Positions 1,809 to 56,992 of a DNA stretch of 64,000 nt are shown in pieces. The notes under the pieces were generated by a model. It was given only the letters and a program-made list of their open reading frames with translations. It made no database searches and was not told the origin of the DNA. Source of the DNA: Gemmatimonadota bacterium. Its GTDB lineage: Bacteria; Gemmatimonadota; Gemmatimonadetes; Gemmatimonadales; GWC2-71-9. Position 1 is the first letter of the stretch; each line of letters opens with the position of its first letter. Made by a program: the position numbers and the translations under genes. The stretch covers positions 67,352 to 131,351 of the forward strand of contig JAJCZX010000010.1 in NCBI GenBank assembly GCA_029262195.1. Direction: 5' to 3'.

Positions 1809-1884
<76 letters not shown>

Positions 1885-31340: not shown

Positions 31341-31673
31341 ATGCCACGAGAGAAAACCGCCCTGCTGCAGGGCACGCTGGACATGCTCATCCTCAAGGCT
31401 CTGGATCGTGAGGCGAAACACGGGTATTCTGTGGCCCGTACGATTGAGCAAGCCACTGACGACGTGCTGAGTGTGGACGAGGGGTCTCTCTACCCGGCGT
31501 TGCACCGCATGGAAAGGAAGAAATGGATCGAATCTTCCTGGGGACTTTCTGAAAACAACAGGCGGGCCAAATTTTACGAAGTCACCAACATGGGGCGAAA
31601 ACAATTGTCAGTTGAAACTTCAGAATGGACCCGCTACTCCCACGCAATCGAACAGATGTTGCACACACCGTGA
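31341..31673 (+). CDS. PadR-family transcriptional regulator
   Basis: 110 aa. LDMLILKAL…HGYSVARTIEQ…GSLYPALHRMERKKWIES is canonical PadR sequence. Confidence 0.93.
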   Translation: MPREKTALLQGTLDMLILKALDREAKHGYSVARTIEQATDDVLSVDEGSLYPALHRMERKKWIESSWGLSENNRRAKFYEVTNMGRKQLSVETSEWTRYSHAIEQMLHTP

Positions 31674-35765: not shown

Positions 35766-36863
35766 GTGTCTGAGGCGATGGTGATGAAAAACTACATAGC
35801 TCGAAGATTGTTGCCCCTGGGGATTCTGGTGATTGTTGTGGCGTGCGATCACACGGAATCCTTCAATCTGCCGACTCGCGAACCACTGGGCCCTTTCCCG
35901 CCCGACCCCGGTAATTCGTTTGTAACTCGACTCACGTTTAATACCGGGGACGATCGAAATCCATCTGTGCACGGGAGCACTCTGGTCTTTAGCCGGTTCG
36001 ACGCCGTCCGGTTTGACCGCGACCGCTGCATTGCCTTCATGCCGGTCGAGGGCGGCAGGATTTTCAGGATGGAATGCCCCAACGGGGGCCGCCCCGACCT
36101 CGTCGTCAACGCCTGGTTGAATCCTGCGATTTCGCCTGACGGTGCTCGTATCTCGTTCGTAGCGGAGGAGAGTAACGCCAGGCTACTTCAGAATCAGCCC
36201 GCAAAGAGACAATTGTTTGTCGCTCCGATCGATAGCCTGGATCGCGCAATCGCTTTCAACCCGAGCGCTATCCGGGTGACGAGGGGGGGGATCAACGACT
36301 TTCGCGAAGTGGTCTGGGTCGATTCAACTACCGTGCGGTTCATTGGGGGAACGGGCGGTTTCAACGCCCTGGGACGAGACACCATCTTTTCTCCTCTCGG
36401 TCTTTTCGACTGGGAAGTCAATTCCGGAAGTGTCACGCTTGTCTCCGGAATTCTCAACCCGATTGCACACACCATTGCCCCTGACGGCGGCATTTGGTTT
36501 ATTCGAGCCGCCGATTCTTCAACTATCCACCACGTACCGTTGGGAGCCGTGACATCGGTCCCGGTACCGTTTGACTGGTCCGGAGTTTCCGACGTACCAG
36601 GAGTGATGTGGGACATTGACAATCTGGACGGTTTACCTCTAGTAGCGGTCCGTACGGAAGTCAAAGGAGGTGACACGCCCCCCTTTGATGCCAACATAGT
36701 GGAGAACCACGTCTTCTTGCTCCATCCCGGAACCGCCGTCGCGGATTTGGTGTGGGTCGGCGCCACCCCGCGCAGCGTTGTGGCGATTCCAGGCCAGCAG
36801 GCGGTGGTGGCCGAGATTCAACAAACCACCGGCGCCAACCTTTTCATGCTTCTGAAGCGATGA
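35766..36863 (+). CDS. PD40/TolB-like beta-propeller lipoprotein
   Basis: 365 aa. Lipobox (LVIVVAC DH). PD40-like motifs (NPAISPDGARISFVAEE; DDRNPSVHGSTLVFSR). Confidence 0.6.
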   Translation: MSEAMVMKNYIARRLLPLGILVIVVACDHTESFNLPTREPLGPFPPDPGNSFVTRLTFNTGDDRNPSVHGSTLVFSRFDAVRFDRDRCIAFMPVEGGRIFRMECPNGGRPDLVVNAWLNPAISPDGARISFVAEESNARLLQNQPAKRQLFVAPIDSLDRAIAFNPSAIRVTRGGINDFREVVWVDSTTVRFIGGTGGFNALGRDTIFSPLGLFDWEVNSGSVTLVSGILNPIAHTIAPDGGIWFIRAADSSTIHHVPLGAVTSVPVPFDWSGVSDVPGVMWDIDNLDGLPLVAVRTEVKGGDTPPFDANIVENHVFLLHPGTAVADLVWVGATPRSVVAIPGQQAVVAEIQQTTGANLFMLLKR

Positions 36864-42497: not shown

Positions 42498-42821
42498 TTA
42501 GGATTCGATTTCGTGAATCAATTGTTTCATGCGCACGGCGTAGCTGCACAACGCTTTGCGTCCTTTGCTTGAGAGCTTCAACAAAGTCCTCGGCCGTTTG
42601 TCCACGAATTCTTTGTTCACCGTGATCAAACCTTCTGCTTCGAGCTTCGAGAGGTGGGAAGAAAGATTGCCCTGAGTCAATTCGGTCTGTCGCATGATGA
42701 AAAGGAAATCCGCAGCGTCGACCGCATATAGATGGCAAAGGACCATAAGACGCGCCGGTTCATGCACTGTGCGGTCGATCCCGTATGCAGCGGTTCCCGC
42801 ATCCTGTTTGGCGTTAGACAT
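42498..42821 (-). CDS. winged-helix transcriptional regulator (ArsR/MarR-like)
   Basis: 107 aa. HEPARLMVLCHL…TQGNLSSHLSKLEAEGLITVNKEF. Overlaps the upstream membrane-protein gene by 8 nt. Confidence 0.8.
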   Translation of the reverse strand: MSNAKQDAGTAAYGIDRTVHEPARLMVLCHLYAVDAADFLFIMRQTELTQGNLSSHLSKLEAEGLITVNKEFVDKRPRTLLKLSSKGRKALCSYAVRMKQLIHEIES

Positions 42822-43476
42822 CGTTCATTCCCCTGTGGGAATACTCATCGATTGGATAGCGCCTCACGAATTTCGTGAGCAAAGTGAGCCCTGTGGCGAC
42901 GATTGCCGCACCGGTGACGACTAGAGTCATCGCTGGTTGTGCATGCAGGGCGTGGGAGGTGACCGACATTGTCACCAGAAGAAAAGCGTAACCGTATAAT
43001 CTCCCTATCTGAAGCACCAAACCGCCGGTTGCGAGCGGTACCGAAAGAACGATTCCGGGAAGGAGGGCCCTGTTGTCGGCGGTCCAGCCCTGGACACGGT
43101 CGGGTCCCGCAACGAGGAACACCAGGGTGACGAGGCAAAAGAGTAATGCCACCCCTACCGTCGCTTTATTGCGCCTCAGGGTACCAAGTCTTTCTTCTTT
43201 CAGACGTACAAAGCCCGATCGTGGTTCAACAAATCGACTCCGTAATTTTCGCCAGATTGGTACGGTGAGGACCACAAGGCCCGCCGTCAATTGATCGAGA
43301 TCTGTTCCCAGTACCAATGCGAAATTCAATACGAACGCGCCGAGTATTATGTCGGCAATTCCGTCGTCTACAAAAGCCCGAAAGGCCCGCCGGTCGGGAC
43401 CGTCTATGTGCGCATGGTTTTTCGGCAAGATCAGCTTCCATGTGGTTAATCGAGAGAAAGATATTTGCCTGATCAT
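42814..43476 (-). CDS. hypothetical polytopic membrane protein
   Basis: 220 aa with ~5 hydrophobic helices. Co-oriented with, and overlapping, the wHTH gene. Confidence 0.6.
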   Translation of the reverse strand: MIRQISFSRLTTWKLILPKNHAHIDGPDRRAFRAFVDDGIADIILGAFVLNFALVLGTDLDQLTAGLVVLTVPIWRKLRSRFVEPRSGFVRLKEERLGTLRRNKATVGVALLFCLVTLVFLVAGPDRVQGWTADNRALLPGIVLSVPLATGGLVLQIGRLYGYAFLLVTMSVTSHALHAQPAMTLVVTGAAIVATGLTLLTKFVRRYPIDEYSHRGMNDV

Positions 43477-43596: not shown

Positions 43597-44079
43597 ATGT
43601 TAACCGGGAATTCATCTGGTCCGGCGGATTCAGCCGGTATCGTCTTGGCTGCCCCTTTTTACTTTGTCCTGGCGTTGGCGGTGAGCTTTTTGCTCGATTT
43701 TCTGAAACCGACTCCCCTGGTTGCGCAGCCACTGCCGGAAACGGTTGGTTATCTGATAGTCGGCCTGAGTTTTGTTTTGTTATGGTTAGTGGACCGTGAA
43801 TTCTCGGCGTGCGAAACCAGCTCCAGTTGCAGGCTGGGCGATTCCGCTTTGATCGTTTCTGGCCCCTTCAGGTTTTCAAGAAATCCCGGGTATCTGGCGA
43901 TGGCAGTCATGCTGATCGGATTGGCTCTTACCACCAACAGTCTTTGGCTCATCGTGATGATTGCACCGGGCTGCTATGCCGTTTACCGGTTTTGCATTCG
44001 CAAGGAGGAGGCTTATCTCGAAAGGAAGTTTGGAGATAACTACCGGCGGTATCGGAATTCGGTGAGACGGTGGTTTTGA
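43597..44079 (+). CDS. isoprenylcysteine carboxyl methyltransferase (ICMT)/phospholipid methyltransferase-family membrane protein
   Basis: 160 aa. GPFRFSRNPGYLAMAVMLIGLAL…EEAYLERKFGDNYRRY is the characteristic C-terminal motif region. Confidence 0.8.
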   Translation: MLTGNSSGPADSAGIVLAAPFYFVLALAVSFLLDFLKPTPLVAQPLPETVGYLIVGLSFVLLWLVDREFSACETSSSCRLGDSALIVSGPFRFSRNPGYLAMAVMLIGLALTTNSLWLIVMIAPGCYAVYRFCIRKEEAYLERKFGDNYRRYRNSVRRWF

Positions 44080-44094
44080 CATGTGAAAGGCCCG

Positions 44095-44910
44095 TTAATC
44101 CGGGTCAACAAAAAACACCCTCGTCCTGGTGTCGCCGTTATCATCCGTTGCGGTTACCTTCACCCGAATACGCGGCCCCGACGACGCATCAAGGGGCAGG
44201 CGATCTCCATCTCGGCTGAGGTGCCCGGAGATTGACGCCCAACCCGGGCCGCTCGATAAAGTAAGCTTTGAGCTCAGGTCGGTTCGACCAAACGCGCTTC
44301 CCGCTGAGCCGAGAATGTCGTCGATCCAGTCCACTCCTATGCTCCCACTTGTAACCAGGTGGACCTCATCCAGAACCACTGAGCCCGGTTTCCAATCGTG
44401 GTTGGGGTTGGATGGAGTCGCCTCAAAGCTGGCATCGATATCCCAATCGAAAACACCTTGTCCGATGCGTTGACTCTGATCGTTCATGTCGATAGAGACC
44501 ACACAGGGTAACTCCGGACCTTCTCCCTCTTCCTCCCCGGTGGGCGTGCCCCCGCCGTCTGTCCCGGTTTCTCCCGGTAACTCGTCCTCCGGGGGTGGAG
44601 TGGGTTCCTCGACCTCGATTGGATCGCACACCCATTGTGCGTGGAGACGGGCTTGAATGCGGAAGACATAAATCTCACGCTTCCAGTTGTAGTGCCCCTC
44701 GACGGCTAGTTCTTCAAACGAATAGCTAAAACCGTGGGGGTTGGTACATCCCTCAGGGCACGTCAGTCGTTGCCTTCGCGAGTCGGCCCACCGCTTCGCC
44801 TGGTTGCGGAGGCGACCCCTCGCGGCCTCGAAGGCATCAACGGCGGTTGCTCCGAGCGCCTGTTGCGTCCAGAACGTCACGGTTCGGATTCGTTGAACTT
44901 CGCAAGCCAT
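44095..44910 (-). CDS. hypothetical protein (two domains joined by an acidic Pro/Gly/Glu linker)
   Basis: 271-aa ORF with no signal peptide and no recognised motif. It lies 109 nt downstream of, and co-oriented with, the blaI-blaR1-like pair. Confidence 0.5.
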   Translation of the reverse strand: MACEVQRIRTVTFWTQQALGATAVDAFEAARGRLRNQAKRWADSRRQRLTCPEGCTNPHGFSYSFEELAVEGHYNWKREIYVFRIQARLHAQWVCDPIEVEEPTPPPEDELPGETGTDGGGTPTGEEEGEGPELPCVVSIDMNDQSQRIGQGVFDWDIDASFEATPSNPNHDWKPGSVVLDEVHLVTSGSIGVDWIDDILGSAGSAFGRTDLSSKLTLSSGPGWASISGHLSRDGDRLPLDASSGPRIRVKVTATDDNGDTRTRVFFVDPD

Positions 44911-45019: not shown

Positions 45020-48000
45020 TTATAGTTGGCGGAGAGCTTTGCCCAGTGCGATACCGAGCTCTGCGTGAAATGAGGCGTCTCTCAACCTCGGTTCATTGAC
45101 GTTGAACTGGATAAGGACCGCCGGAACGGCAGGCGGCCGCAGAACGGCGAAGCGTGATTGACGCGGGTATACCGATTCGACAATTTCGTCGACTAGCAGT
45201 TGATCCGACAGGATGGATGCAAACCTTTGACTAGCGGTGTCGGATGGGAATGTGTACATCGATAACGAGTTGTATGGGCGATTGCTGTGGGATGGATCCA
45301 CGTGGATGGACACCAAAGCGATCGCATCATTCGAACGCGCGAACTCCTGCGGAATTCTTACTCCCCGACCCGGCTCGATCTGGGGCTTAACCAGTACTCG
45401 AAACCCCTGCGAGGTAAGTTCCACGGCGATTCTTTGTGCTGCTTCGAGGTTGACGATTTTTTCCGCTACTCCTCCGTCAAGAATGCTGCCTGTGTATTCT
45501 CCGCCATGTCCGGGCGCGAGGACAACTAGCGGCGTGCGGGTGTCGGGACTCGTTTGTGAAATCTGAAGTTCTCTGGCTGGGACCACCGGCCCACACGTTC
45601 GGGATGAGGTTCCAAGGACTTCGTCTATGTCGACCGGTGTCCAACGTTCTCCTGAGATATCATCGCCTGCTCGATAGAAGAGAGTTACAACTCCGAGCAC
45701 ATGCTGTGCGTGGTAGATAGAACTTATTTGAAGGGCTGAAACCCTGTGCACTGGAATAAACCGGTTGCTCATGCGTTCCGTACGTGCCAGAGGCTGCCCG
45801 TTGTAGTTGGTAGCGGCGATGGTCGGGCACAGAAAGTTCACGTTGTTTGCACCCGACACTATGCCATACTGCCAGGTTGTGTTGTCGCGACTGAATTTTA
45901 CTCGAGCGCCGTCTTTGAGAAGCAGAGGACGCGGTGGTCGAATAACTCCGACCTGTTGTACACCTGATGCCCTCCTATCGCAAAATATTAGCCTGGACTG
46001 GGTCCGCGCTTTTTCGTAGTCAGATTCAATTGTGGCAACGGCCGCTGTGAACGCCGCTTGTATGTCCGCGTTCCCAGGAGCGGGGTTCGCCTGTTGGGTG
46101 CAGAGGAGGGTGAGCAGCTCGACCTTGTCGTGATCGGACTCAAGGTTGCCAATGTGTCTCACCGACTTGATCGCGGTTTCGTTGTCCAGGGTCGCCGTTT
46201 CGAGAAGTCTGGCAATAACTCGAGCACGTTGATATGAAGACGAAAGGTCTGAAATCCCCTGGAACCATGCCGCGCGTGTTTCGGAGTCTACATCATCGCG
46301 GGCAATTGCTGAGAGCACTAGCTCTGCACGAGTCTCTTCAACTTCAAGGGCAGTCGCCGCTTCCATGATCGAACCGATAAATGCTGGTGTCGAAGGTTGG
46401 CGCACCAATAGCGAACGCAACACTCGAAGTCGGTGCTGGTCGGAACGGAGGTGAGACAGGGTCGGGACAAATGTCGATGGCAACGTTTGATCGACTGAAA
46501 AGGTTGCCCCCACTCTAATCAACAGCGCGGTCAATTCGTCAACCGCGTCAATGGTGGTGGACACCTCCAGAACCTGGAGTGCGGCAGCTGGGTTGGCCTG
46601 GAGAGCAGTCGTCAAAATGGACGCGGCGTCCACGTCGGCTTCTATGGTGGCAACCCATGGGAAGAACGCCGCCCTGAGTTCAGGTGTCCGTTGAAAATCG
46701 ACCGCCATATCTTCCAGTAGCACGGCGAGTTCGCCTTGCGAACGGAACAAGGGTATCACCCGCTCCGCTGATACGATTCGGTCGTTGTCATCCACGCTCT
46801 CGCTGTTTAACAGGGCTGTCAGGTAAAGTCTGCGTCCAATGCCGGTCCGCAGTTGGTCAATTTCTTCGAGGAGCGAATCGACCCCGAAGTTGTTGAGAAT
46901 CCACGTGGCTCGCTCGGTAGCGGAAATGTGTGTGCCGCGAAAAACTTCGGTAAGAATTTGAGTAAATTCTTGTCTGGCGGCTGAGTCGAATGCTGCCTCC
47001 TCGCCATCTACCATCCACTTCCAATCGATCCGACCCAGCCTATCTGATGTGAACTCGATTTGTCGACGCAGGTCGCCCTTTTTGAAATCGACTTCGAAAT
47101 AACCCCGGGGGCTGATCCCATCCAGGTCATCGAATCCGTCGTTAAAGTTCACGTCCCCTGCCACATGAATGTCAACACTACAATCGAATCCGCCCCACCT
47201 GAATCCGTTAGGAGCGCTCGTCGGCCGATTGACCTCACGTTGCCGGCTGGCTTCGTCCATCACTGCCGCCATAAACGCTGATCGCGCTACGTTGGGCTCT
47301 CGGCATTCGAACGGCAATTCGATGTCCTGGGTCGCAGAGGTGCTAGCAGGCGGGGGTTCTACGGTTTGAATGACCGTTGTCGGTGGTGGGAGGCGGGGGG
47401 TGTTCGCGGCGTGTTTCGTCTCCAGCTCAATAGTCCCGGCAACTGAGGTTGTACTATCTGCGGCAGTCGTTGCGACTCCTATGGGAGTGAAGAAGAGCCC
47501 CGTCAGCAGGAGAATTGGGTAAGCGCGTTTTCGGGTCATAGGGGTCCTCTCCACGTCGGGCAGCAACATTCGTCGGAGTCTGTTCCGAAGTCGTGAACGT
47601 CCCAGCGCAGGTACGCCTACAGCGAGTTGGGCACTTTTTTGATACCGCGCCACGGTGAGGATGCTTTCGGCGTAACCGGACGATTTTCTACCGGTGGAAA
47701 GGACCATGTCATCAGCAGCTAGCTCTGATTCGACGCGCAGGCGCCATACGGCCACCCACACCAGGGGGTTGAACCATTGAATAGCTGCGGTAGCCATGGA
47801 AACCAGCTGCACGGCGTGGTCTCGTCGCGCGACGTGCGATAGCTCGTGGAGCAGGATGTCTCGCTTCCTGTTTTCTGGCCATCCGTAGGACCCCGCCGGA
47901 AGGAGGATAACCGGATTGAATGTCCCCCAGGTCATGGGTGTTTGTCCCTTGATTCCTTCAAGCAACATAGGAGGGTTGTGCGTGCCGAGTTCGCCGGCCA

Positions 48001-48580
48001 CTGTACCGCACAGGGTTTTCCATTGGCGGTCGGTGATCTGTTTCGCGTGACGTTTTAGCCACGCCAGGCGACCGATGCCGATCAGGCCGTAAAGTAGAAC
48101 GGAGAAAACACCCAGAGCCCAAACCGCCACTGTCCAGTTTGACCAGTTTGTAGGAGTGGAGGGAGAGGGGAGGAGGGAGGGGGAGAAGGCTGGTTCTGTT
48201 TCGGCCGCAGTCTCAGCCATTTGTTCGTTGTTGGGCGGAGTCGTTGGGATTGGCGTGACCGACAGAGGGCTTCGTTCAGCGACGACTTCTGCCCGAGGTA
48301 GCCTGTCGACCGCGCTGGATTGTTCAGGCTGGTTCGTTTCGCTGCGAATCAGGTTCGCCGGGGACCAGTTGGGAAGAAACATCCCTAACGGGAGTAGAAG
48401 CGTGCATGCCAGGCCCGCGGCCCACAGCAAGTGCCGTGTTGCGGCGGAGGTTTTGCGCATGGCCAGGGTGATCAACCCGATAAGTCCCAGCAGTAGGAAG
48501 GCCTTGGCCATCTGTTCTACCAGGAGCGATGACACGCTTGTTGCGAACTGGCTTGTCGCCCCGTTGAAAAGAAGTTCCAT
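45020..48580 (-). CDS. BlaR1/MecR1-type M56 peptidase sensor fused to a large repeat region and a C-terminal Amidase_3-like domain
   Basis: 1186 aa. N-terminal TM region with LLHELSHVARRDH (HExxH of M56). Central region with recurring S(D/S)(Y/H)xKxxxLxxL-type units. The C-terminal ~210 aa carries VVLAPGHGG…AEK…LVSIHVD…RFAVLRPPAVPAVLIQFN, resembling N-acetylmuramoyl-L-alanine amidase (Amidase_3). Confidence 0.85.
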   Translation of the reverse strand: MELLFNGATSQFATSVSSLLVEQMAKAFLLLGLIGLITLAMRKTSAATRHLLWAAGLACTLLLPLGMFLPNWSPANLIRSETNQPEQSSAVDRLPRAEVVAERSPLSVTPIPTTPPNNEQMAETAAETEPAFSPSLLPSPSTPTNWSNWTVAVWALGVFSVLLYGLIGIGRLAWLKRHAKQITDRQWKTLCGTVAGELGTHNPPMLLEGIKGQTPMTWGTFNPVILLPAGSYGWPENRKRDILLHELSHVARRDHAVQLVSMATAAIQWFNPLVWVAVWRLRVESELAADDMVLSTGRKSSGYAESILTVARYQKSAQLAVGVPALGRSRLRNRLRRMLLPDVERTPMTRKRAYPILLLTGLFFTPIGVATTAADSTTSVAGTIELETKHAANTPRLPPPTTVIQTVEPPPASTSATQDIELPFECREPNVARSAFMAAVMDEASRQREVNRPTSAPNGFRWGGFDCSVDIHVAGDVNFNDGFDDLDGISPRGYFEVDFKKGDLRRQIEFTSDRLGRIDWKWMVDGEEAAFDSAARQEFTQILTEVFRGTHISATERATWILNNFGVDSLLEEIDQLRTGIGRRLYLTALLNSESVDDNDRIVSAERVIPLFRSQGELAVLLEDMAVDFQRTPELRAAFFPWVATIEADVDAASILTTALQANPAAALQVLEVSTTIDAVDELTALLIRVGATFSVDQTLPSTFVPTLSHLRSDQHRLRVLRSLLVRQPSTPAFIGSIMEAATALEVEETRAELVLSAIARDDVDSETRAAWFQGISDLSSSYQRARVIARLLETATLDNETAIKSVRHIGNLESDHDKVELLTLLCTQQANPAPGNADIQAAFTAAVATIESDYEKARTQSRLIFCDRRASGVQQVGVIRPPRPLLLKDGARVKFSRDNTTWQYGIVSGANNVNFLCPTIAATNYNGQPLARTERMSNRFIPVHRVSALQISSIYHAQHVLGVVTLFYRAGDDISGERWTPVDIDEVLGTSSRTCGPVVPARELQISQTSPDTRTPLVVLAPGHGGEYTGSILDGGVAEKIVNLEAAQRIAVELTSQGFRVLVKPQIEPGRGVRIPQEFARSNDAIALVSIHVDPSHSNRPYNSLSMYTFPSDTASQRFASILSDQLLVDEIVESVYPRQSRFAVLRPPAVPAVLIQFNVNEPRLRDASFHAELGIALGKALRQL

Positions 48581-48973
48581 CTACCTACCCTCCCTTTTTG
48601 CGGTCTCTATCATAGCGGCCAGTTCATCCAGTTCTCTCTCTGTTAGACTTGCGGCGCCGTCTTCCAACAATGCGACCACGGTTTGGCTTACCGATCCCTC
48701 AAAAAATGTCCCAACCAGTTGTTTGATAGCGGAGCCCCGGACTCTCTCTCGCGGCGTAGTTGGAAAGAACGTGTGCCTGGTGCCATCCATCCGGTGTTGG
48801 AGGTGACCCTTTTCCTCCAGGATTTTCAGGAGTCGCCGAACTCCTGAATAACTGGGTGGGCTGGACATTCGTTGCCGGACCTCGAGGGCGCTTGCCGACC
48901 CGCTCTGGTAGACGATGTCCATCATTTCCCGCTCGCGCCTCGTAAGATTGCCGTATTCATTTGGAGTTTTCAT
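48581..48973 (-). CDS. BlaI/MecI/CopY-family transcriptional repressor
   Basis: I prefer the start at ATG 48973 (MKTPNEYGNLTRREREMMDIVY…). The winged helix is typical of BlaI. Its stop directly abuts the sensor gene's ATG (TAG-ATG). Confidence 0.92.
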   Translation of the reverse strand: MKTPNEYGNLTRREREMMDIVYQSGSASALEVRQRMSSPPSYSGVRRLLKILEEKGHLQHRMDGTRHTFFPTTPRERVRGSAIKQLVGTFFEGSVSQTVVALLEDGAASLTERELDELAAMIETAKREGR

Positions 48974-48980
48974 GGAGCCT

Positions 48981-49016
48981 GTGCACAAAAATTAGCAAGT
49001 GCACAAAAAGTAGCAT
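48981..49016 (-). promoter_or_regulatory. tandem direct repeats upstream of blaI (candidate operator)
   Basis: The minus strand reads TGCTACTTTTTGTGCAC then TTGCTAATTTTTGTGCAC. These are two adjacent 17-18-bp repeats, each ending in the palindromic hexamer GTGCAC, 7 nt upstream of the ATG. Confidence 0.45.
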
Positions 49017-49055: not shown

Positions 49056-50957
49056 TTAGGGGTCGGCAGCGCGAATAACTTCCAGTATCGCCGCTCCGTA
49101 CTTTTTGATCTTTGACGGGCCAATCCCGTGGGCAAGCGCCAATCCCATTTCGGTAGTAGGCCGCAGTGATGCGATCTCCCGCAAAGTCCGGTCGCTGGCG
49201 ACGACGTAAGGTGGAACTTTGCCTTTGCGGGCCGTTTCGAGTCTCCAGGATCTGAGCTCTTCAAACAGGCCTCTGGCCTGGGGATCAAGGTTGTCATTCT
49301 GCCCGGAGCGTCTGCGGCGAGGACTTCCCTTACTGCTGGCGGCGACCTGCTTGCTGGTTCGTGAAGGGAGTAGGAGCCGGGCGGGGCGACGCTCTCGTAT
49401 TACATCCTGGCCCTCTTGCGTCAACACAACGACGGGGCGTTGTCCTCCGTGGAAATCAACCCAGCCGGCTGTCACACATCGTCGCAGGACGGTGAGAATC
49501 CAGTCTTCTTTATACTCTGCTAACGTTCCGAAGGTGGGAGTGAGAGCAAGACCGGACCAATCAAGTCGTTCGTCTTTGGCACCCTTGAGTAGTTTCGCGA
49601 CGGCTTGAATGCCAAAACGACCGTTTACTCGGGCCACACCGCAAAGGGCTTTCCGAACGATGGTCGCGGTTTCATCTTCGTTCTGTGAGTCGTTGTCATC
49701 CATCTCGAGGCACACGTCACACCGTCCACAACCCGAAAGGGTTTCCTCCTCGTCACCAAAATATCTCAGTATGGTGTCGTGTCTGCAGCTTCCTCCCTCG
49801 GCCCACCGCATCAATTCGAGAAACAGATTCCATTTATGGCGAACAACGTTTTCGTCAATTGCCCGGCTTTCGTAGTCACCCTCGATCAAGGTCCTCCTCA
49901 ACGCCATGTCGCCAGGGGATAAGATGAGCAAACAGGTGGCGTCCTTGCCATCTCTTCCCGCTCTCCCTGCCTCCTGGTAGTAGGCTTCAACCGAACTCGG
50001 TGGTGCAAGGTGTGCGATGCATCTAACATCTGCCCGGTCTATTCCCATGCCGAACGCGTTTGTTGCGACGACTATTTCAAGCGCGCCGGATGCAAAGGCC
50101 GTCTGCACGCGGTCCCTTTCAGGGCCAATCATACCGGCGTGATACGCTTCGGCACGCCAGCCGATTTCGGCGAGCCGTTCGGCTTCGGCCTCCGTCCTTT
50201 TGCGGGTTGGGCTATAGATGATAGCCGTGCCAGCAGCGCTCCCCGGGGCACCGAGCGCTTCTTTCAGCAAGAGATCTACGTGCGTGTTGCTCTGTGCTCG
50301 CCGTTGTATTTCGCTGACGCGGAACGAAAGGTTGGGTCTTGCGAATCCTTTCAATAGCTGCGGAGTATCTGGCGGGAGTCCGAGTCGGTCTAGTATTTCG
50401 TCTCGCACAATGGGCGTGGCGGTGGCTGTACAGGCGAGCACCCGAGCGTTGGGGAGGCTTTTTAGCAACTCGCCGATTCGCATGTAGTCGGGTCTGAAGT
50501 CGTGTCCCCACTCGCTGATGCAGTGCGCTTCGTCAACGGCAACCAGGGGACATTCCAGACGATTAACCATTGCGCGAAAGCCGCCAAAGTTGAGCCGCTC
50601 GGGGGCCACATAAATAAGATCGTATGCGCCGCGAGACGCTTCCGCTACGCGGTGTGCCATCTCGCCTGAGTCGACGGTTGCTGCAAAGTAAGTAGCGTTT
50701 ACCCCGCGGTTCTGGAGGGCTGAAACCTGGTCGTGCATCAGCGCGATAAGTGGAGAAACCACAATCGTAGTGCCAGGGAGCATCGATGCGGGAAGCTGGT
50801 AGGCCAGGCTCTTTCCACCTCCGGTCGGAGCTACGAGGAGGAGGTTATCGCCCGATAGTATTGTTTCGATGGCTTCGCGCTGGCCGGGCTTGAAAGAATC
50901 GTAACCGAGTTTTTGTAGCGCGGCATCCAGATGCGACGCTCCCAGAGCCGGGTTCAA
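49056..50957 (-). CDS. recQ: ATP-dependent DNA helicase RecQ
   Basis: 633 aa. PTGGGKSLAYQLP, VAVDEAHCISEWGHDFRPDY, a Zn-binding Cys cluster (CRHD…CGRCDVC), and a C-terminal HRDC-like region. The start codon is TTG in the ORF track. Confidence 0.95.
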   Translation of the reverse strand: MNPALGASHLDAALQKLGYDSFKPGQREAIETILSGDNLLLVAPTGGGKSLAYQLPASMLPGTTIVVSPLIALMHDQVSALQNRGVNATYFAATVDSGEMAHRVAEASRGAYDLIYVAPERLNFGGFRAMVNRLECPLVAVDEAHCISEWGHDFRPDYMRIGELLKSLPNARVLACTATATPIVRDEILDRLGLPPDTPQLLKGFARPNLSFRVSEIQRRAQSNTHVDLLLKEALGAPGSAAGTAIIYSPTRKRTEAEAERLAEIGWRAEAYHAGMIGPERDRVQTAFASGALEIVVATNAFGMGIDRADVRCIAHLAPPSSVEAYYQEAGRAGRDGKDATCLLILSPGDMALRRTLIEGDYESRAIDENVVRHKWNLFLELMRWAEGGSCRHDTILRYFGDEEETLSGCGRCDVCLEMDDNDSQNEDETATIVRKALCGVARVNGRFGIQAVAKLLKGAKDERLDWSGLALTPTFGTLAEYKEDWILTVLRRCVTAGWVDFHGGQRPVVVLTQEGQDVIRERRPARLLLPSRTSKQVAASSKGSPRRRRSGQNDNLDPQARGLFEELRSWRLETARKGKVPPYVVASDRTLREIASLRPTTEMGLALAHGIGPSKIKKYGAAILEVIRAADP

Positions 50958-52327
50958 AACTGGATCCTCGTAAAAACGCTTACAGATTGCAGCCCACCAC
51001 CGTAGTCCGGTTTGATCTCGTCATCCACCCAATGAAGGGCGCCGGCAATTCCAACTCCCCAGATCGTCGAATCTTGCGACAGGATGTCGTAGACAAGCCC
51101 TCCCTCAATCTTCCCCAAAGAAAAGATGCTACTGTGCCGCGAATCGGCGGGAGGTAGCAGCTCGGTCTTGCGACCCGTCTCCAGTCTTCCGAAAACGGTA
51201 GCCGCTCCATGCCGTAGAGATGATTCTAACAGGAGGGCAGACGTTATTTGTGATGGAAAAAACAGTATCAGTGAATCCTCGGGGATGTTCGGAAGTTCGG
51301 CCAGTCCAATGAAGTGGTCCAAGACCGCGGGCGAAAAAGTACGCCTCGCCTCCCGCAGGGGAATCATGGCCTCCTCGTTCTTATTCCGCCCAAGGGCGAG
51401 AGTAGTCTGCCATTCGCCGTTTCCGAGTGGTCGGTTGTATGTGGCAGACAGGGTAAGTCTGAGGACACTTATCCCGGGGTGAAGTTGCTCGGGATCGATC
51501 AATTGAGCGACACTTCCTTGAAGCACGAGCTTGTCAGAAGGACGACTGGTGGCGCGAAATGCCCATGAATCAAACCGCGGGGTTTCAGGCCCCCAGCGGT
51601 TTTGGTCGGGTTCGCGGCCGTTGAAAACAGACGCTTCGATCTGCGTTTTGTTGTCGGTAACGAGTCCGAGAGTCAAAACTCCATGAGCTATGTGTGTGGC
51701 GTCCAGAAAATGGTGACTAATCGGAGCAACCGGATTTGTTCTCCCCGATCCGCGATGCATGAAAGCGGTTGGCCCGATTGCAGGTGCACCGACCGGCGCA
51801 GCGTAGAAAAAAACAAGGTCCCGTGGAGAAACGGGTATCTGATACTCGGCCGAAGCTTCCATAATGAGATCGTGCGGGTGTTGACGGTCGGTGAGTGGCA
51901 AAACTCCGTCGGACGTTTCCCCTGTTTGTAATAGCAATGGGTAACCGTCCCGTCCTCCCGTGGCTTCTAAAGAACCCATCAATCTCAACGTGAGGCGACC
52001 AGGTCCCAATCCCCGTGTTGCCATCACCATCAGCATGTTCGTGCTAAACCCTTCGTTGTCGCCCCGAGGGCCTGGGTCGTCGCGGTAAATGAATGAGCCA
52101 GTTCCGCTGAACATCAACCGCCATCGGCCCGAAGTGACCCGGATTCCGCTGTGCTCCACCGAAGGGAGGGCCACGCTCGTACCTGATTCGTGAGCTATCC
52201 ATCTCGTTCGCCCCACCGCCGTATCAGCTACCTGCGTAGCAACCGGACCGGCCAGGAGTAATTGAGCCAGCGCTGCAACCATTAGGTCGACCGCCCGGAA
52301 AGATTGGCTGAGGTTCCTCGGTTTCAT
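50954..52327 (-). CDS. hypothetical outer-membrane beta-barrel protein
   Basis: I prefer the start at ATG 52327, which gives a signal-like N-terminus (MKPRNLSQSFRAVDLMVAALAQLLLAGPVATQ). The C-terminus ends …VSVFTRIQF, with the terminal Phe typical of OMPs. The stop overlaps the recQ start. Confidence 0.55.
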   Translation of the reverse strand: MKPRNLSQSFRAVDLMVAALAQLLLAGPVATQVADTAVGRTRWIAHESGTSVALPSVEHSGIRVTSGRWRLMFSGTGSFIYRDDPGPRGDNEGFSTNMLMVMATRGLGPGRLTLRLMGSLEATGGRDGYPLLLQTGETSDGVLPLTDRQHPHDLIMEASAEYQIPVSPRDLVFFYAAPVGAPAIGPTAFMHRGSGRTNPVAPISHHFLDATHIAHGVLTLGLVTDNKTQIEASVFNGREPDQNRWGPETPRFDSWAFRATSRPSDKLVLQGSVAQLIDPEQLHPGISVLRLTLSATYNRPLGNGEWQTTLALGRNKNEEAMIPLREARRTFSPAVLDHFIGLAELPNIPEDSLILFFPSQITSALLLESSLRHGAATVFGRLETGRKTELLPPADSRHSSIFSLGKIEGGLVYDILSQDSTIWGVGIAGALHWVDDEIKPDYGGGLQSVSVFTRIQF

Positions 52328-52350
52328 GGTCAGTAAGTTAGTTTCTAAAC

Positions 52351-54243
52351 ATGTATTCACTAGCGGTCTCCTTATCTGACACTGTCGGGTTGAACCTACC
52401 GGCGTTCACGTTTGCCCTGGCTCTGGCGGCGGGGATGATCGCTAACGCCCTTGCCCACCACCTGCGCTTGCCGGGGATCGTTTTGTTTCTGGCTGCCGGT
52501 GTTATGCTTGGCCCCGAATTTCTAAATGTGGTTCGTCCGGAAACTCTGGGCAGCGGGCTCGATACCATTGTTGCTCTGGCCGTAGCCGTGATTCTGTTTG
52601 AGGGAGGGCTCAACCTCAACGTCAGCAGGTTGAAAAGCCAGGCTACCATTATCCGCAGGTTGGTGACGATTGGTGCGATAGTCACGGCCATCGGAGGTAC
52701 ACTTGCGGCTCTGTGGGTGATGGGTTGGCCGTTGTACCTATCGGTGATTTTTGGAACGCTGGTCATCGTTACCGGGCCCACGGTGGTATCTCCCCTCGTG
52801 CGAAGGATTCGTCTCACACCTCGGTTGCAGACAATCCTGGAGGCCGAGGGCGTGTTGATTGACCCCATCGGTGCGGTAATCGCGGTGGTCACCCTGGAAC
52901 TTGTGCTCGATCAATCATCCGGGAGCGCCGCCGCTCTTGGAGTACTTGGCCTTCCGACTCGTTTGTTGGTTGGGGCGGCGGTAGGGGCGTTAGGCGGGTT
53001 TCTCATCGGGTTTGTGCTCGGACGGGAACATGTAGTGCCCGAAGAGCACCGCAACATGTTCACATTAGCTCTGGTGCTGGCGTTATTTGCGGCCAGCGAA
53101 GCGATCATAGCGGAAAGCGGCATCATGGCCGCACCAGTAGCGGGGATCGTTGTCGGCAACATGCGAACACGGGTGCGAGAGGAGTTGCTCGAATTCAAGG
53201 AGCAACTCACGACGCTTCTGGTAGGAATGTTGTTTGTGATACTGGCGGCGGATGTGAGCGTTTCTGAAGTGACTGGCCTGGGGATCGGCGGAGTCGTAAC
53301 CATTGCGTTGCTGATGTTTGTTGTCAGGCCCCTTGATGTGGCCGTTTGCACCTACAAATCAGACCTGGCCCTAAAGGAAAAAGCCTTCATCGCCTGGATA
53401 GGCCCCAGGGGCATTGTCGCGGCTGCGGTTGCCTCGCTCTTCGCGCAACGGCTTACTGCCAATGGGATGGAAGGAGGGCCCCAACTGCAGGCATTGGTGT
53501 TTGCAGTGATCGCGGCAACGGTCGTATTACAAGGTCTTTCCGGGGCTCCGATAGCGGCGGCGTTAGGGTTGCGGCGCACCAAGGATCAGGGCTTTGCAAT
53601 AGTTGGTGCTAACGGAGTCGGTCTTGCCCTGGCAGGTGTCCTGCGGGATTCAGGCCACCCGGTCGTGATTGTTGACTCAAACGCGGTATTGTCTGCCGCC
53701 GCAAAAGAGTCAGGGTTCGACGTAGTTTACGGGAACGCCGCCAATCCTTCGGTTATGTATCGCGCTGATCTGGAAGGGCGTCGCGGGTTCGTTGTTACGA
53801 CCATGAATGACGGAGCGAACCTCCTTATTGCTAACAGGGCGCGAGACGAGACGCGAGAGGTCCCGACTTTCGTAACCATCACCCGTGACAGTTCTGCTGT
53901 CACCGAGGAGCAGGTTTCGGATGACGGGCACCGGCTACTTTTTGGACGGGGAGTGGATCTCGCCCAATGGGACCACATGCTGCGTTCCTCTGCAACGAAA
54001 ATTTCGCGTTGGATCTACCAGCCCAAAGAAAACAAAGAGAGTTGGAAAGAGCTGGTAGGCGGTCAGAGACGTGCCGACGCCCTTTTTCTTCCGTTGGCGG
54101 TTGCTCAGAAGGGTCGCGTTGCTCCGCTCGACGACCGAACCAACATCAATCCGGGGGACGTTGTTGTTGTGGTGATGCCAGAAAAGCAATCCGCTTCTGT
54201 TTCCGACCGTTTGTTGGAAATTGGTCTGCTGCCGGTAGAATGA
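52351..54243 (+). CDS. cation:proton antiporter (CPA1/NhaP-type) with C-terminal TrkA/RCK domains
   Basis: 630 aa. About 12 TM helices, then a Rossmann GxGxxG (IVGANGVGLALAG) and a TrkA-C-like tail. Confidence 0.88.
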   Translation: MYSLAVSLSDTVGLNLPAFTFALALAAGMIANALAHHLRLPGIVLFLAAGVMLGPEFLNVVRPETLGSGLDTIVALAVAVILFEGGLNLNVSRLKSQATIIRRLVTIGAIVTAIGGTLAALWVMGWPLYLSVIFGTLVIVTGPTVVSPLVRRIRLTPRLQTILEAEGVLIDPIGAVIAVVTLELVLDQSSGSAAALGVLGLPTRLLVGAAVGALGGFLIGFVLGREHVVPEEHRNMFTLALVLALFAASEAIIAESGIMAAPVAGIVVGNMRTRVREELLEFKEQLTTLLVGMLFVILAADVSVSEVTGLGIGGVVTIALLMFVVRPLDVAVCTYKSDLALKEKAFIAWIGPRGIVAAAVASLFAQRLTANGMEGGPQLQALVFAVIAATVVLQGLSGAPIAAALGLRRTKDQGFAIVGANGVGLALAGVLRDSGHPVVIVDSNAVLSAAAKESGFDVVYGNAANPSVMYRADLEGRRGFVVTTMNDGANLLIANRARDETREVPTFVTITRDSSAVTEEQVSDDGHRLLFGRGVDLAQWDHMLRSSATKISRWIYQPKENKESWKELVGGQRRADALFLPLAVAQKGRVAPLDDRTNINPGDVVVVVMPEKQSASVSDRLLEIGLLPVE

Positions 54244-54485: not shown

Positions 54486-54893
54486 CTAACGTCTATCTTT
54501 TTCCATACTCGCCAGAACCAAGGCCGCAGCGACAGCCGTGAAGACTGAATGGTGAAACGGCGTTACCCATCCGCGCCCCAACATCATGCTTACCCCAAAC
54601 GTGAACATCAAAACGCTGGCTGCAAACGCCACACGGGCTGTTTGAAAGCCGACTAAGAGGCAAACCCCGAATGTTATTTCGCTGATTGTGGCGATCAGGC
54701 CTGCGAGGGGAACCATCGAGTCGGGGAGGTAAGGGGTAATTTCCGCGACTGAGTCGAGGAAGAGATCCCATTCCTTCCAACGTGGTAAAGCGGACACCAG
54801 GAAAGTGCTGGCGAGCCCGAGTCGCAGCAATATGGCGATGCGGGGCCGAAGGATTGCCTGGATGGATTCGAATCCTTTGTCCAATACGCTCAA
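54486..54893 (-). CDS. DoxX-like membrane protein
   Basis: 135 aa with 4 hydrophobic helices. Overlaps the upstream peroxidase-like gene by 4 nt. Confidence 0.5.
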   Translation of the reverse strand: MSVLDKGFESIQAILRPRIAILLRLGLASTFLVSALPRWKEWDLFLDSVAEITPYLPDSMVPLAGLIATISEITFGVCLLVGFQTARVAFAASVLMFTFGVSMMLGRGWVTPFHHSVFTAVAAALVLASMEKDRR

Positions 54894-56992
54894 AAGAACT
54901 CCAGTAGATCCAGCAGGTTGTTGATTTCATCTCTTTCGAGTCTGCGATGCGCGTTTGTCATGTCAGCAGGAGGGACATGGTGCCAGGAGTCTGAGCCATT
55001 GTAACGGAACCTCTCCAAAACGTCTCGTAACGTTTGAGAGGAGCCGTTCGTGAAGTACGGATATTTTTGCGTCACTCTGCGCAGGCTGGTGACGCGCGTG
55101 CCGCGAGGCGACACATAGGGCTCGATGCCCGTCTTACTAAAATGCGGAGCGCCCCAAACCAGGTCGTTCTGCTCCGACTCCAGCCACGTTGGCCACTCTT
55201 CGTGTTCGACGCCTTCGAACCGATTAGACGTTGTGAAGAGCGGTTGGTGGCAAAACCCGCAGCGTTGGCGGAACGTTTCGATCGCGGCGCGGGCGCCCTC
55301 GGTTAGCGGCGTTGAGTCCGCACGGAGCGGATGGTAGGGACGCGAATAACTCGCGAGGTAAGAGAGAAACGCGCGTCGTAGCATTTCTGGTCCGATGCTG
55401 TCAGGGAGTTCGACGAAATGAGCGAGCCATGGATAATCGTGAGTTTGCAAGCTGAACAGCTCGGTGCCGTCACCCTGGTTGGCGGCCTTGAATTCCGCCA
55501 GGGTCATTGAAGCCATGGTCTCATCACCGCCTCTGGAAAAAAGCGGGACGTTATTGGCCAGGCCCTGTACTGGTTTTGTCGTAGCAAAAATTTGCTCTCT
55601 GCCAGTGTAGTGGGTGCGCCCGTCGATGCCGCCTTCGAAGTGGCATGTTTCACAGGTAAAACGCGACAGGACTGAATCGGAAACATTGTTGGGTGCCATC
55701 AACTCCGTGAAGATCAGCATCTCGCCAAGAAAATTGAGCGGGTTGCGAGTTGTGCTGCTGGGGCGGTATGAAGGAGTCATGTCCGCCGAGTGAGTTGATG
55801 GCGACAGGCTATAGATGGCGTCCACAAGTGTGTTGGCGAGGGTAAGTCCCGTCAGACCGCCTTCGCCAAACGTAAAGTCGGTTGTACCCGGGGGGACGTT
55901 TCTCGACTCCACCGGCTCAAAGGTCTCTCCGGTCCGTTCGAGTTCGGTTATCACTCCGGAGCCGAATCCGGCCGCGAAAATGGTGGATGTCGGAACGTTA
56001 CGGTCACGGAACCGAACGACTTTCGGCGTGATCATGCCCAACTCCGAAACATTCTTTGAGGCAATCAGTCCTGGCTCGGTACCGGGCTGCTGAAAGGAAT
56101 AAAGGAAGACGAACGAGTCTACCCACCCAAACTCGCCCCCGGTCCGGTCGAGCGGGCGATCTTCCACCCCTCCGATTGCGATACGAAGCCCCTCCCCATC
56201 GGGCGCTATATCGAATCCCCACATTGGCCCGGCATGGGCGATGGCTGTGGCACCGGTTATGTCGGGAATGCCATGTTGCGTAGGAAGCAGCAGGAGCTTG
56301 TGGTCCAACAACAGGTTGACGGCCAGGTATCCGTTAGAGTATTCCAGGTCGATCGGTTCGGCGCCGATCTGGTATTCCGAAATCTCGAGTGCCAGATCGG
56401 AAATATTTCCGTTGCGAATCCGCCTGCTCCAATCGGCTGGCAGCTTTATCCGAACCAGCATGTCACGCCAGGGGTCGGTTAGAAAAATCGTCCTGTCGTC
56501 AGGTAGGAATTCCACTTCTCGAATCGATACAACGCCCGGCAGCGAGAGTTTGCCCAGTTCGGAGATATTTCCTGACCCCACTCGATAGAAACCAAGTTCG
56601 TTTGACAGTTCGCCACCCACGACGATGATACCGGAATCAACCTCTTCCCAGCCCGCCGGAGATGGGGGCGTGTTGACCCGTGCTATGTCTTCGAAAGATG
56701 AATCGAGAAGGACCATCTCAGACGAACCCCGCATCAAAACCAGGAACTCCCCCGATCGTGGGGCGTCCATGATGCGGTAGGGGTCGTCGCCAAAAGATGG
56801 GGCCGTGGTCGAGTCTATCAACTCCAGCTCGAGGTCGAGTAAGCGCTCGAACATCTGGTCCTCCGGAGACAATCCGCAGGCGCTGGTTAACATGACGACA
56901 CCGAAGATGGCCAGGGAAGCGCGGAGCGCCGGGCGATTATTCAGCCCGGCGCCCAAAACACCTTTAAAAGTTTGACGTGAGGTGTTTACCAA
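54890..56992 (-). CDS. lipoprotein with C-terminal di-haem cytochrome c peroxidase-like domain
   Basis: 700 aa. Lipobox (VMLTSAC GLS). Two CxxCH haem-binding motifs (CETCH; CGFCHQPLFTT, the latter like the CCP/MauG second-haem region). The N-terminal ~400 aa are unassigned. Confidence 0.78.
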   Translation of the reverse strand: MVNTSRQTFKGVLGAGLNNRPALRASLAIFGVVMLTSACGLSPEDQMFERLLDLELELIDSTTAPSFGDDPYRIMDAPRSGEFLVLMRGSSEMVLLDSSFEDIARVNTPPSPAGWEEVDSGIIVVGGELSNELGFYRVGSGNISELGKLSLPGVVSIREVEFLPDDRTIFLTDPWRDMLVRIKLPADWSRRIRNGNISDLALEISEYQIGAEPIDLEYSNGYLAVNLLLDHKLLLLPTQHGIPDITGATAIAHAGPMWGFDIAPDGEGLRIAIGGVEDRPLDRTGGEFGWVDSFVFLYSFQQPGTEPGLIASKNVSELGMITPKVVRFRDRNVPTSTIFAAGFGSGVITELERTGETFEPVESRNVPPGTTDFTFGEGGLTGLTLANTLVDAIYSLSPSTHSADMTPSYRPSSTTRNPLNFLGEMLIFTELMAPNNVSDSVLSRFTCETCHFEGGIDGRTHYTGREQIFATTKPVQGLANNVPLFSRGGDETMASMTLAEFKAANQGDGTELFSLQTHDYPWLAHFVELPDSIGPEMLRRAFLSYLASYSRPYHPLRADSTPLTEGARAAIETFRQRCGFCHQPLFTTSNRFEGVEHEEWPTWLESEQNDLVWGAPHFSKTGIEPYVSPRGTRVTSLRRVTQKYPYFTNGSSQTLRDVLERFRYNGSDSWHHVPPADMTNAHRRLERDEINNLLDLLEFF

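Follow-up and report, generated by a model that had tools for sequence, protein, structure and literature searches.

A BlaI/BlaR1-type gene pair whose M56 sensor-protease combines a solenoid ectodomain with a degenerate Amidase_3-like end

Introduction

What does a BlaR1-like sensor-protease respond to when it has no penicillin-binding domain and ends instead in a domain resembling peptidoglycan amidases? The question is raised by a gene pair in a 64-kb stretch of Gemmatimonadota DNA (assembly GCA_029262195.1, contig JAJCZX010000010.1; the whole stretch is hereafter the window), which encodes a repressor of 130 amino acids (aa) and, directly behind it, an M56 protein of 1186 aa. An earlier note on this DNA, made by a model from the letters alone, had proposed a BlaR-type proteolytic switch gated by the binding or cleavage of muropeptides rather than by β-lactams. 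Judged by its sequence, the locus belongs to the BlaI/BlaR1 type, and the membrane domain of its sensor is an M56 gluzincin. We put at roughly 0.5 the probability that it operates as a proteolytic switch of the BlaIR type, in which the Amidase_3-like end is non-catalytic and possibly binds peptidoglycan.

Most BlaR-like proteins sense something other than β-lactams and sit beside a BlaI (PMC13492132). The InterPro survey in the CenIR study (J Bacteriol 2026) comprised about 15,000 M56 proteins in 254 architectures, some 6% of them with a β-lactam-binding domain and 96% within five genes of a BlaI (PMC13492132). Amidase_3 (PF01520) is named there, beside TonB_C, M23 and others, among the domains of nine M56 architectures with at least 100 entries (PMC13492132). 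Because it is already listed in that survey, the joining of M56 to Amidase_3 is not a new architecture; the earlier note had left this to a search, which found precedent both in the survey (PMC13492132) and in three further fusions described below. The window protein is set apart by a solenoid ectodomain combined with a degenerate amidase active site.

Results

A repressor gene adjoining an M56 sensor-protease gene

The listing of open reading frames (ORFs) gives two on the minus strand, 45020-48580 (1186 aa) and, upstream of it, 48581-48988. For the upstream ORF the ATG at 48973 is a likelier start than the in-frame TTG at 48988, because the exact 130-aa product is on record in public assemblies. 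The pair and the parts that define it are as follows.

48581..48973, minus strand: BlaI/MecI-type winged-helix repressor gene, 130 aa plus stop (PF03965; MecI alignment)
45020..48580, minus strand: whole M56 sensor-protease gene, 1186 aa (ORF listing)
47459..48580, minus strand: membrane and protease part, aa 1-374 (PF05569, hydropathy, BlaR1 alignment)
47834..47848, minus strand: HELSH zinc-binding/catalytic motif, aa 245-249 (sequence; BlaR1 alignment)

The repressor scores 79.5 bits with Penicillinase_R (PF03965; cutoff 22.6) in a match that covers profile positions 1-114 of 115, and it aligns end to end with MecI (1SD6/1OKR, MecI residues 7-119). Its TAG (48583-48581) abuts the ATG (48580) of the M56 gene, as the earlier note had read, and a GGGAGGG Shine-Dalgarno-like run lies upstream. 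Since the TAG directly adjoins the ATG behind this run, we regard the two genes as translationally coupled. The M56 protein matches Peptidase_M56 (PF05569) over aa 128-335 with 97.2 bits against a cutoff of 31, so that both products exceed their Pfam cutoffs and the proposal of a BlaI/BlaR1-type pair holds. In a phmmer comparison aa 152-309 align to the cryo-EM chains of BlaR1 (8EXP-8EXT; 8EXS/8EXP at 8e-6). The HELSH at aa 245-249, already picked out in the earlier note as the M56 HExxH, pairs with HEYAH of BlaR1, and ESELAADD (Glu286) pairs with NEVEAD, the ExxxAD motif. The HExxH and ExxxAD columns are nearly invariant in an alignment of M56 proteins (A3). An identical 1186-aa protein (P0001) is on record in two assemblies (NCBI, Logan).

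Hydropathy predicts four transmembrane helices (about aa 19-41, 51-69, 151-169 and 353-374), with K/R-rich loops at 42-50, 170-190 and 325-352 on the predicted cytoplasmic side and a Pro-rich loop, aa 70-150, predicted to be periplasmic. The helices are in the same register as those of BlaR1. Because hydropathy, the positive-inside rule and BlaR1 homology agree, everything after aa 374 (about 810 residues) is predicted to lie in the periplasm, and a cytoplasmic placement of the amidase-like end, which would have told against the proposed switch, is not borne out.

The PF00905 transpeptidase/penicillin-binding profile finds no match in the 1186-aa protein, in agreement with the earlier claim that such a sensor domain is missing. 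NCBIfam blaR1_generic gives 90.9 bits against a cutoff of 400 and covers profile positions 100-313 only, the membrane-protease part. By PF00905 and the NCBIfam equivalog, then, the protein does not classify as a bona fide BlaR1/MecR1 β-lactam sensor.

In BlaR1/BlaI and MecR1/MecI of Staphylococcus aureus and Bacillus licheniformis, as in the window, the repressor gene stands immediately upstream of the sensor-protease gene. BlaR1 and MecR1 share with the window protein the four transmembrane helices, the HExxH with the ExxxAD Glu, and a sensor outside the membrane after the fourth helix; BlaI and MecI share with the window repressor the full-length Penicillinase_R winged helix. The classical sensors differ in their PF00905 domain and in size (an ectodomain of about 250 aa against about 810 here), and no β-lactamase or PBP2a gene lies near the window pair.

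An Amidase_3 fold at the C-terminus

45023..45535, minus strand: Amidase_3-like domain, aa 1016-1186, about 171 aa (PF01520, phmmer, AlphaFold2, Foldseek)
45107..45109, minus strand: codon CAG for Gln1158, at the catalytic Glu position of the family (alignments)

Amidase_3 (PF01520) matches aa 1019-1158 with 59.1 bits against a cutoff of 27, over profile positions 1-142 of 174 only. Among solved structures phmmer finds AmiC2 (5EMI, 6e-12) as well as AmiC, AmiA, AmiB and CwlV. A word-indexed search with the C-terminal 287 aa returned one weak match, the domain being too divergent for it, and an exhaustive HMMER search of 1.84 billion representatives was used instead. This gave 1979 matches at E ≤ 1e-3, of which all that were examined are amidase domains; the nearest relative has 35% identity (E 1e-15).

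The AlphaFold2 model, built from a 110-sequence alignment, is confident for the amidase core (aa ~1016-1186), with a predicted local distance difference test score (pLDDT) of 85-97. Foldseek aligns it to AmiC2, CwlV, LytH, AmiP and a CD630 amidase with target-normalised TM-scores of 0.72-0.77 (5EMI, 0.72 with E 1e-14; 4RN7, 0.75; 1JWQ, 0.74; 7TJ4, 0.75; 7B3N, 0.77). Profile, homologues and model together indicate that the C-terminus is a bona fide Amidase_3 fold, by descent. The earlier assignment to this family thus finds both the profile support and the structural likeness to AmiC and CwlV on which it depended; only the extent changes, to about 171 aa (1016-1186) from the ~210 aa first proposed.

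The zinc triad is kept and the catalytic glutamate replaced

The family's landmarks are readily seen in the sequence: GHGG at 1024, AEK at 1039 and SIHVD at 1091. The zinc triad they supply, H1025, E1040 and H1093, stands in columns that are His in 154 of 154, Glu in 154 of 154 and His in 153 of 155 relatives. To this extent the Amidase_3 landmarks named in the earlier note are present; a fourth, the catalytic Glu, whose loss the note had missed, is not. Where the family reads P-A/S-V-L-V-E, the catalytic strand of the window protein reads PAVLIQ, with Gln1158 in place of Glu. Among the 133 nearest relatives this position is Glu in 127, Asp in 3, another residue in 3 and Gln in none; in another alignment, of 109 Amidase_3 proteins collected independently (A2), it is Glu in 108. 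The equivalence of Gln1158 rests on four independent alignments.

The departure from the family is wider than this one residue. Of the 32 columns of A2 with at least 80% conservation, 13 are off consensus in the window domain, against a family mean of 1.6 (standard deviation 1.2, maximum 7; n = 109). The changes include D1022A, D1029Y, T1065K, R1066P, D1069E, R1077P, G1105S and E1158Q, and any one of the first six occurs in 0-9 of about 150 relatives. Besides Gln1158 and Tyr1029, the domain has replacements at seven more positions whose conservation in A2 is at least 98%; those of D1022, T1065, R1066 and R1077 are 98-100% conserved there. Five residues are deleted after the catalytic strand. 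In CwlD, His49, Glu65 and His133 bind zinc, and Glu53 (His+4, equivalent to Tyr1029 here) positions His49 (PMC8496864). Glu199 of CwlD is presumed catalytic, and E199A abolishes function (PMC8496864).

Because Gln1158, Tyr1029 and other changes replace near-invariant residues, the tip domain is most likely a non-hydrolytic pseudo-amidase, as far as its sequence can tell. The alternative is an active MurNAc-L-Ala amidase, which would make the protein bifunctional or let it sense by turning over its ligand, with Gln1158 or a neighbour as general base. The intact zinc triad and GHGG, EK and SIH motifs speak for it, as does Glu1165 a few residues past Gln1158 (QFNVNEP), and two of the three other M56-Amidase_3 fusions considered below (P0021 and P0192) keep the full catalytic set while the third (P0163) has Asp, so that catalysis may matter in the class. 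Against it stand the position at which relatives never have Gln, the loss of function in CwlD E199A (PMC8496864), the Tyr in place of the acid that positions the zinc-binding His, the lost D1022, T1065, R1066 and R1077, and the five-residue deletion. We consider an active enzyme quite improbable, and for the same replacements of the catalytic Glu and the His-positioning acid the cleavage of muropeptides that the earlier note had allowed for is unlikely.

Retention of the zinc triad was also considered as a sign of selection and rejected, since with 19 of the 32 conserved columns retained it has a p of about 0.2.

A stalk shared with other M56 proteins

Between the membrane and the pseudo-amidase lie four regions.

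47210..47458, minus strand: Pro/Thr/Ser-rich linker after the fourth transmembrane helix, aa 375-457, predicted periplasmic and disordered (sequence; pLDDT < 50)
46985..47209, minus strand: eight-strand β module, aa ~458-532 (AlphaFold2 pLDDT 87-95)
45977..46984, minus strand: α-solenoid of 19 helices, aa 533-868 (AlphaFold2 model)
45536..45976, minus strand: bridge, apparently β-rich, aa 869-1015, 147 aa (pLDDT 29-61)

The β module and solenoid are modelled with a mean pLDDT of 84.6 and a predicted TM-score of 0.77, and the linker with pLDDT < 50 (model residues 1-43). From about aa 580 the solenoid comprises some 8.5 two-helix repeats of about 34 aa, degenerate SDYEK...L..L units in which the S-D/S-Y/H-x-K motif is still clear in three only (aa 781, 815 and 853). 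The repeats and bridging region described in the earlier note are therefore real, but the repeats span about 290-340 aa (from aa ~533 or 580 to 868), not ~450, and the β module ahead of them (aa ~458-530) had been missed. Structure comparison of the middle module with solved structures finds resemblance to generic TPR, HEAT and designed repeats only. Neither linker, β module and solenoid, nor bridge matches a Pfam family at permissive thresholds (E ≤ 10 for the bridge), and neither the exhaustive search of the representatives nor local searches found a homologue of the bridge.

A homologue search identifies at least 17 other M56 proteins that share the module of aa ~458-868 (E 1e-36 to 1e-10). 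They come from Acidobacteriota, Thermoanaerobaculia and Longimicrobiales metagenome-assembled genomes and include P0002-P0013, P0024, P0033 and P0038. Like the window protein these named relatives have the M56 domain, the module and the repeat motif S-D-Y/H/F-E-K/L-x-x-x-L; unlike it they have neither bridge nor amidase domain, and their repeats are much better conserved. The stalk homologues match the solenoid in several staggered registers, and all end right after the last repeat. By sequence, then, the window protein is a member of a stalk subfamily with 318 extra residues. No orthologue was found in about 5.8 billion clusters and the 1.84 billion representatives, and a scan of GTDB species genomes returned only M56-domain relatives of at most 38% identity.

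The extension could be explained away in two manners. The first is an assembly or annotation artefact, in which an M56-solenoid gene and a separate secreted amidase were merged by a lost stop or a frameshift. The family ends at a position matching aa ~868 and the sequence comes from metagenome assemblies, as this account would have it. Yet after aa 374, the extension beyond aa 868 included, neither a start codon with a signal peptide nor a hydrophobic segment is present; the bridge is a continuous open frame of 147 aa; GC content shows no break at the join; the identical 1186-aa product appears in two assemblies; and independent M56-Amidase_3 fusions exist (PMC13492132). We rejected a merged gene on the missing signal peptide or hydrophobic stretch and the agreement of the two assemblies, and hold any artefact to be very improbable indeed.

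The second, and the main rival to our interpretation, holds the tip to be a decaying appendage without function, leaves all the sensing to the β module and solenoid and makes the ligand unrelated to peptidoglycan. The relatives that end after the repeats are what this account predicts. Among about 260 Amidase_3 sequences that were examined, no other comes near this domain in degeneracy, its Pfam match is weak and partial (59 bits against 146-155 in other M56-amidase fusions), and the protein is a singleton without orthologues and with no cell-wall genes nearby. On the other side, the frame has stayed open for 318 codons past the family's usual end, the modelled domain is a compact, confident Amidase_3 fold (pLDDT 85-97), and GHGG, E-K, S-I-H and all three zinc ligands are intact, although ligand retention alone is statistically not unusual. 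A decaying appendage seems to us doubtful as an explanation, but it deserves to be taken seriously; the active enzyme and the artefact are less likely.

Other M56 proteins with an amidase end

Three further M56-Amidase_3 fusions were found, P0021 (875 aa), P0192 (553 aa) and P0163 (627 aa), the last two from the exhaustive search; P0021 has an overlapping upstream BlaI gene of 135 aa on three contigs. All three resemble the window protein in their M56 N-terminus and C-terminal Amidase_3 domain. They differ in being canonical amidases that match the full profile with 146-155 bits, and in having no β module or solenoid. The catalytic strand is VLVE in P0021 and P0192 and VVID in P0163, against PAVLIQ in the window protein, and the amidase domains of P0021 and P0163 are 25-26% identical to the window domain. 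Within the collections searched we found no second arrangement of a solenoid ectodomain with a degenerate amidase.

P0163 is K/N-rich and low-GC-looking, and it has Asp at the catalytic position (PSVVIDFG) despite its 155 bits against Amidase_3. Variation at the catalytic residue may thus recur among M56-linked amidases.

CenIR of Clostridioides difficile and the surveyed M56 proteins are like the window protein in being without a transpeptidase domain and beside a BlaI (PMC13492132). CenIR has been shown to link a BlaIR system to cell-envelope homeostasis, and its regulon includes the Amidase_3 enzyme Cwp6 (PMC13492132). CenR has a short, largely disordered tail where the window protein has a folded amidase domain (PMC13492132). 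The layout seen here, of β module, solenoid, bridge and degenerate amidase, is not among the architectures that the survey describes (PMC13492132).

A candidate operator ahead of the repressor gene

48981..49015, minus strand: candidate BlaI operator, two tandem 17-nt boxes, TGCTACTTTTTGTGCAC (49015-48999) and TGCTAATTTTTGTGCAC (48997-48981) (direct repeat)

The intergenic stretch from the RecQ stop (49056) to the repressor ATG (48973) holds a −35-like TTGACG at 49026-49021 and, behind it, two boxes of the form TGCTA(C/A)TTTTTGTGCAC. They recur with a period of 18 bp and share the palindrome GTGCAC; 7 nt separate the end of the second from the ATG. Within the window TTTTTGTGCAC is found at these two sites only. 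The TACA/TGTA motif is absent, and a promoter and terminator scan around the operon gave a signal no better than chance.

At the P0021 locus (L082, JGI metagenome 3300056828, 5505-5585) two TGCTAA...TTAGCA palindromes, the near-identical TGCTAATTAATTTAGCA and TGCTAAATTAATTAGCA, stand on either side of a promoter with a TTGACA −35, ahead of the BlaI gene. This is a textbook-looking operator pair, and its half-site TGCTAA resembles the start of the window boxes. Since P0021 has such a palindrome pair at its BlaI promoter, an operator role for the boxes at 48981-49015 is plausible by analogy.

Neighbouring genes

44095..44910, minus strand: 271-aa ORF, 109 bp downstream of the M56 gene, with a GAGGGA ribosome-binding-like site ahead

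None of the recognisable neighbours of the pair points to cell-wall metabolism; they include RecQ, a PEMT-like methyltransferase, a prolyl oligopeptidase, a Na+/H+ exchanger and two large permeases of the MacB/FtsX type. The 271-aa ORF has no signal peptide and an acidic middle rich in Pro, Glu and Gly; neither it nor two other unannotated ORFs match anything in Pfam, NCBIfam or PHROG. No terminator was found between it and the M56 gene and no operator box ahead of it, and it may be co-transcribed as a third gene of the operon. A terminator-like hairpin lies at its 3′ end (44133-44114).

Beyond this ORF, an overlapping pair at 42498-43476 (minus strand) encodes first a multi-pass membrane protein of 220 aa, without a family, and then an HTH_34/ArsR-like regulator of 107 aa with a winged helix. 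Divergent from that pair is a PEMT/ICMT-like membrane methyltransferase gene (43597-44079, plus strand). The permeases, of 909 and 872 aa, have MacB periplasmic-core and FtsX domains (31625-34354, plus strand; 57519-60137, minus strand); duplicated orphan permeases of this MacB/FtsX type are abundant in Acidobacteriota and Gemmatimonadota, which gives a hint of where the window belongs taxonomically. An ORF of 468 aa (50954-52360, minus strand) overlaps the RecQ start by 4 nt and has no Pfam or PHROG match; it ends in VFTRIQF, an aromatic C-terminus typical of outer-membrane β-barrels that would fit a diderm host. ORFs of 700 aa (54890-56992, minus strand) and 365 aa (35766-36863, plus strand) have no Pfam match at E ≤ 1e-5. 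The sole Rfam match at gathering threshold in the window is a tRNA gene (1811-1884, plus strand; 77.9 bits).

Discussion

How might such a protein work? The host, an uncultured bacterium, is probably diderm, to judge from the phyla of the nearest relatives (Rhodothermales, Acidobacteriota, Gemmatimonadota). In the one-step switch that we favour, the 130-aa repressor would probably bind the two tandem TGCTAnTTTTTGTGCAC boxes overlapping its own promoter and so keep the coupled operon off. The M56 protein would sit in the inner membrane by its four helices, with its intact gluzincin site (HELSH245-249 and Glu286) facing the cytoplasm. On the periplasmic side the P/T-rich linker, β module and 19-helix solenoid would form a long stalk, a putative sensor module common to other M56 proteins, and the lineage-specific bridge would place the Amidase_3-fold domain at its tip. 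That tip, with its zinc triad kept and its catalytic Glu replaced, has presumably lost activity; it might bind or dock onto the MurNAc/stem-peptide junction of peptidoglycan or onto released muropeptides. A change in occupancy would then be relayed through the stalk, the M56 protease would cleave the repressor and the operon would be derepressed.

A fuller version of this switch makes the protein a periplasm-spanning receptor, in which the pseudo-amidase, through its Glu-to-Gln change, would be a natural substrate trap that grips the sacculus at the MurNAc/stem-peptide junction or captures released muropeptides, and the rigid stalk would relay changes in the integrity or composition of the wall to repressor cleavage by the M56 domain. 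We regard this version as unlikely.

Several observations weigh against the switch with a peptidoglycan-binding tip. In the repressor alignment VLNFVE of MecI pairs with VVALLE, so that the Asn-Phe cleavage site of MecI and BlaI is Ala-Leu in the window repressor; we take the scissile site of these repressors to be of the Asn101-Phe102 type, in the dimerisation helix. The operator assignment amounts to a repeat beside a start codon, and no cell-wall gene lies near the pair. The changes D1022A, D1029Y, T1065K, R1066P and R1077P could have destroyed substrate or metal binding along with catalysis. Neither the bridge nor the geometry between the domains is reliably modelled. The relatives that share the stalk, at least 17 of them, presumably signal by β module and solenoid alone, so that the amidase-like tip may be dispensable, and the window protein, for which no orthologue was found, is a singleton.

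Hydrolase folds with a non-catalytic role have precedents. The insect proteins PGRP-SA and PGRP-LC have the Amidase_2 fold without its zinc site and act as receptors, and EnvC and NlpD are degenerate LytM factors. CwlM, a mycobacterial Amidase_3 homologue, is a regulator and not a hydrolase, a cytoplasmic protein that, once phosphorylated, acts on MurA (PMC4946905). As proposed for the tip, each of these puts a peptidoglycan-hydrolase fold to use in regulation or recognition; unlike the window protein none is fused to an M56 protease, and the PGRPs belong to another amidase fold and another kingdom. The non-catalytic PGRP receptors of insects offer the closest functional analogy to the receptor role that we suggest here.

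The practical value of the finding is limited by its being a single metagenomic sequence, without orthologues or linked cell-wall genes, from a class of architecture already catalogued. Its interest lies in the ligand. M56 proteins that end in an amidase fold are a subclass for which one can guess the ligand, peptidoglycan or muropeptide, and test the guess. If the window domain is functional, its metal triad with Gln would argue that binding, not hydrolysis, is what such sensors need, and it would be a ready-made non-hydrolysing receptor domain. Should the periplasm-spanning receptor prove true, it would be a bacterial counterpart of the non-catalytic PGRP receptors and the first non-β-lactam system of the BlaIR family with an identified ligand.

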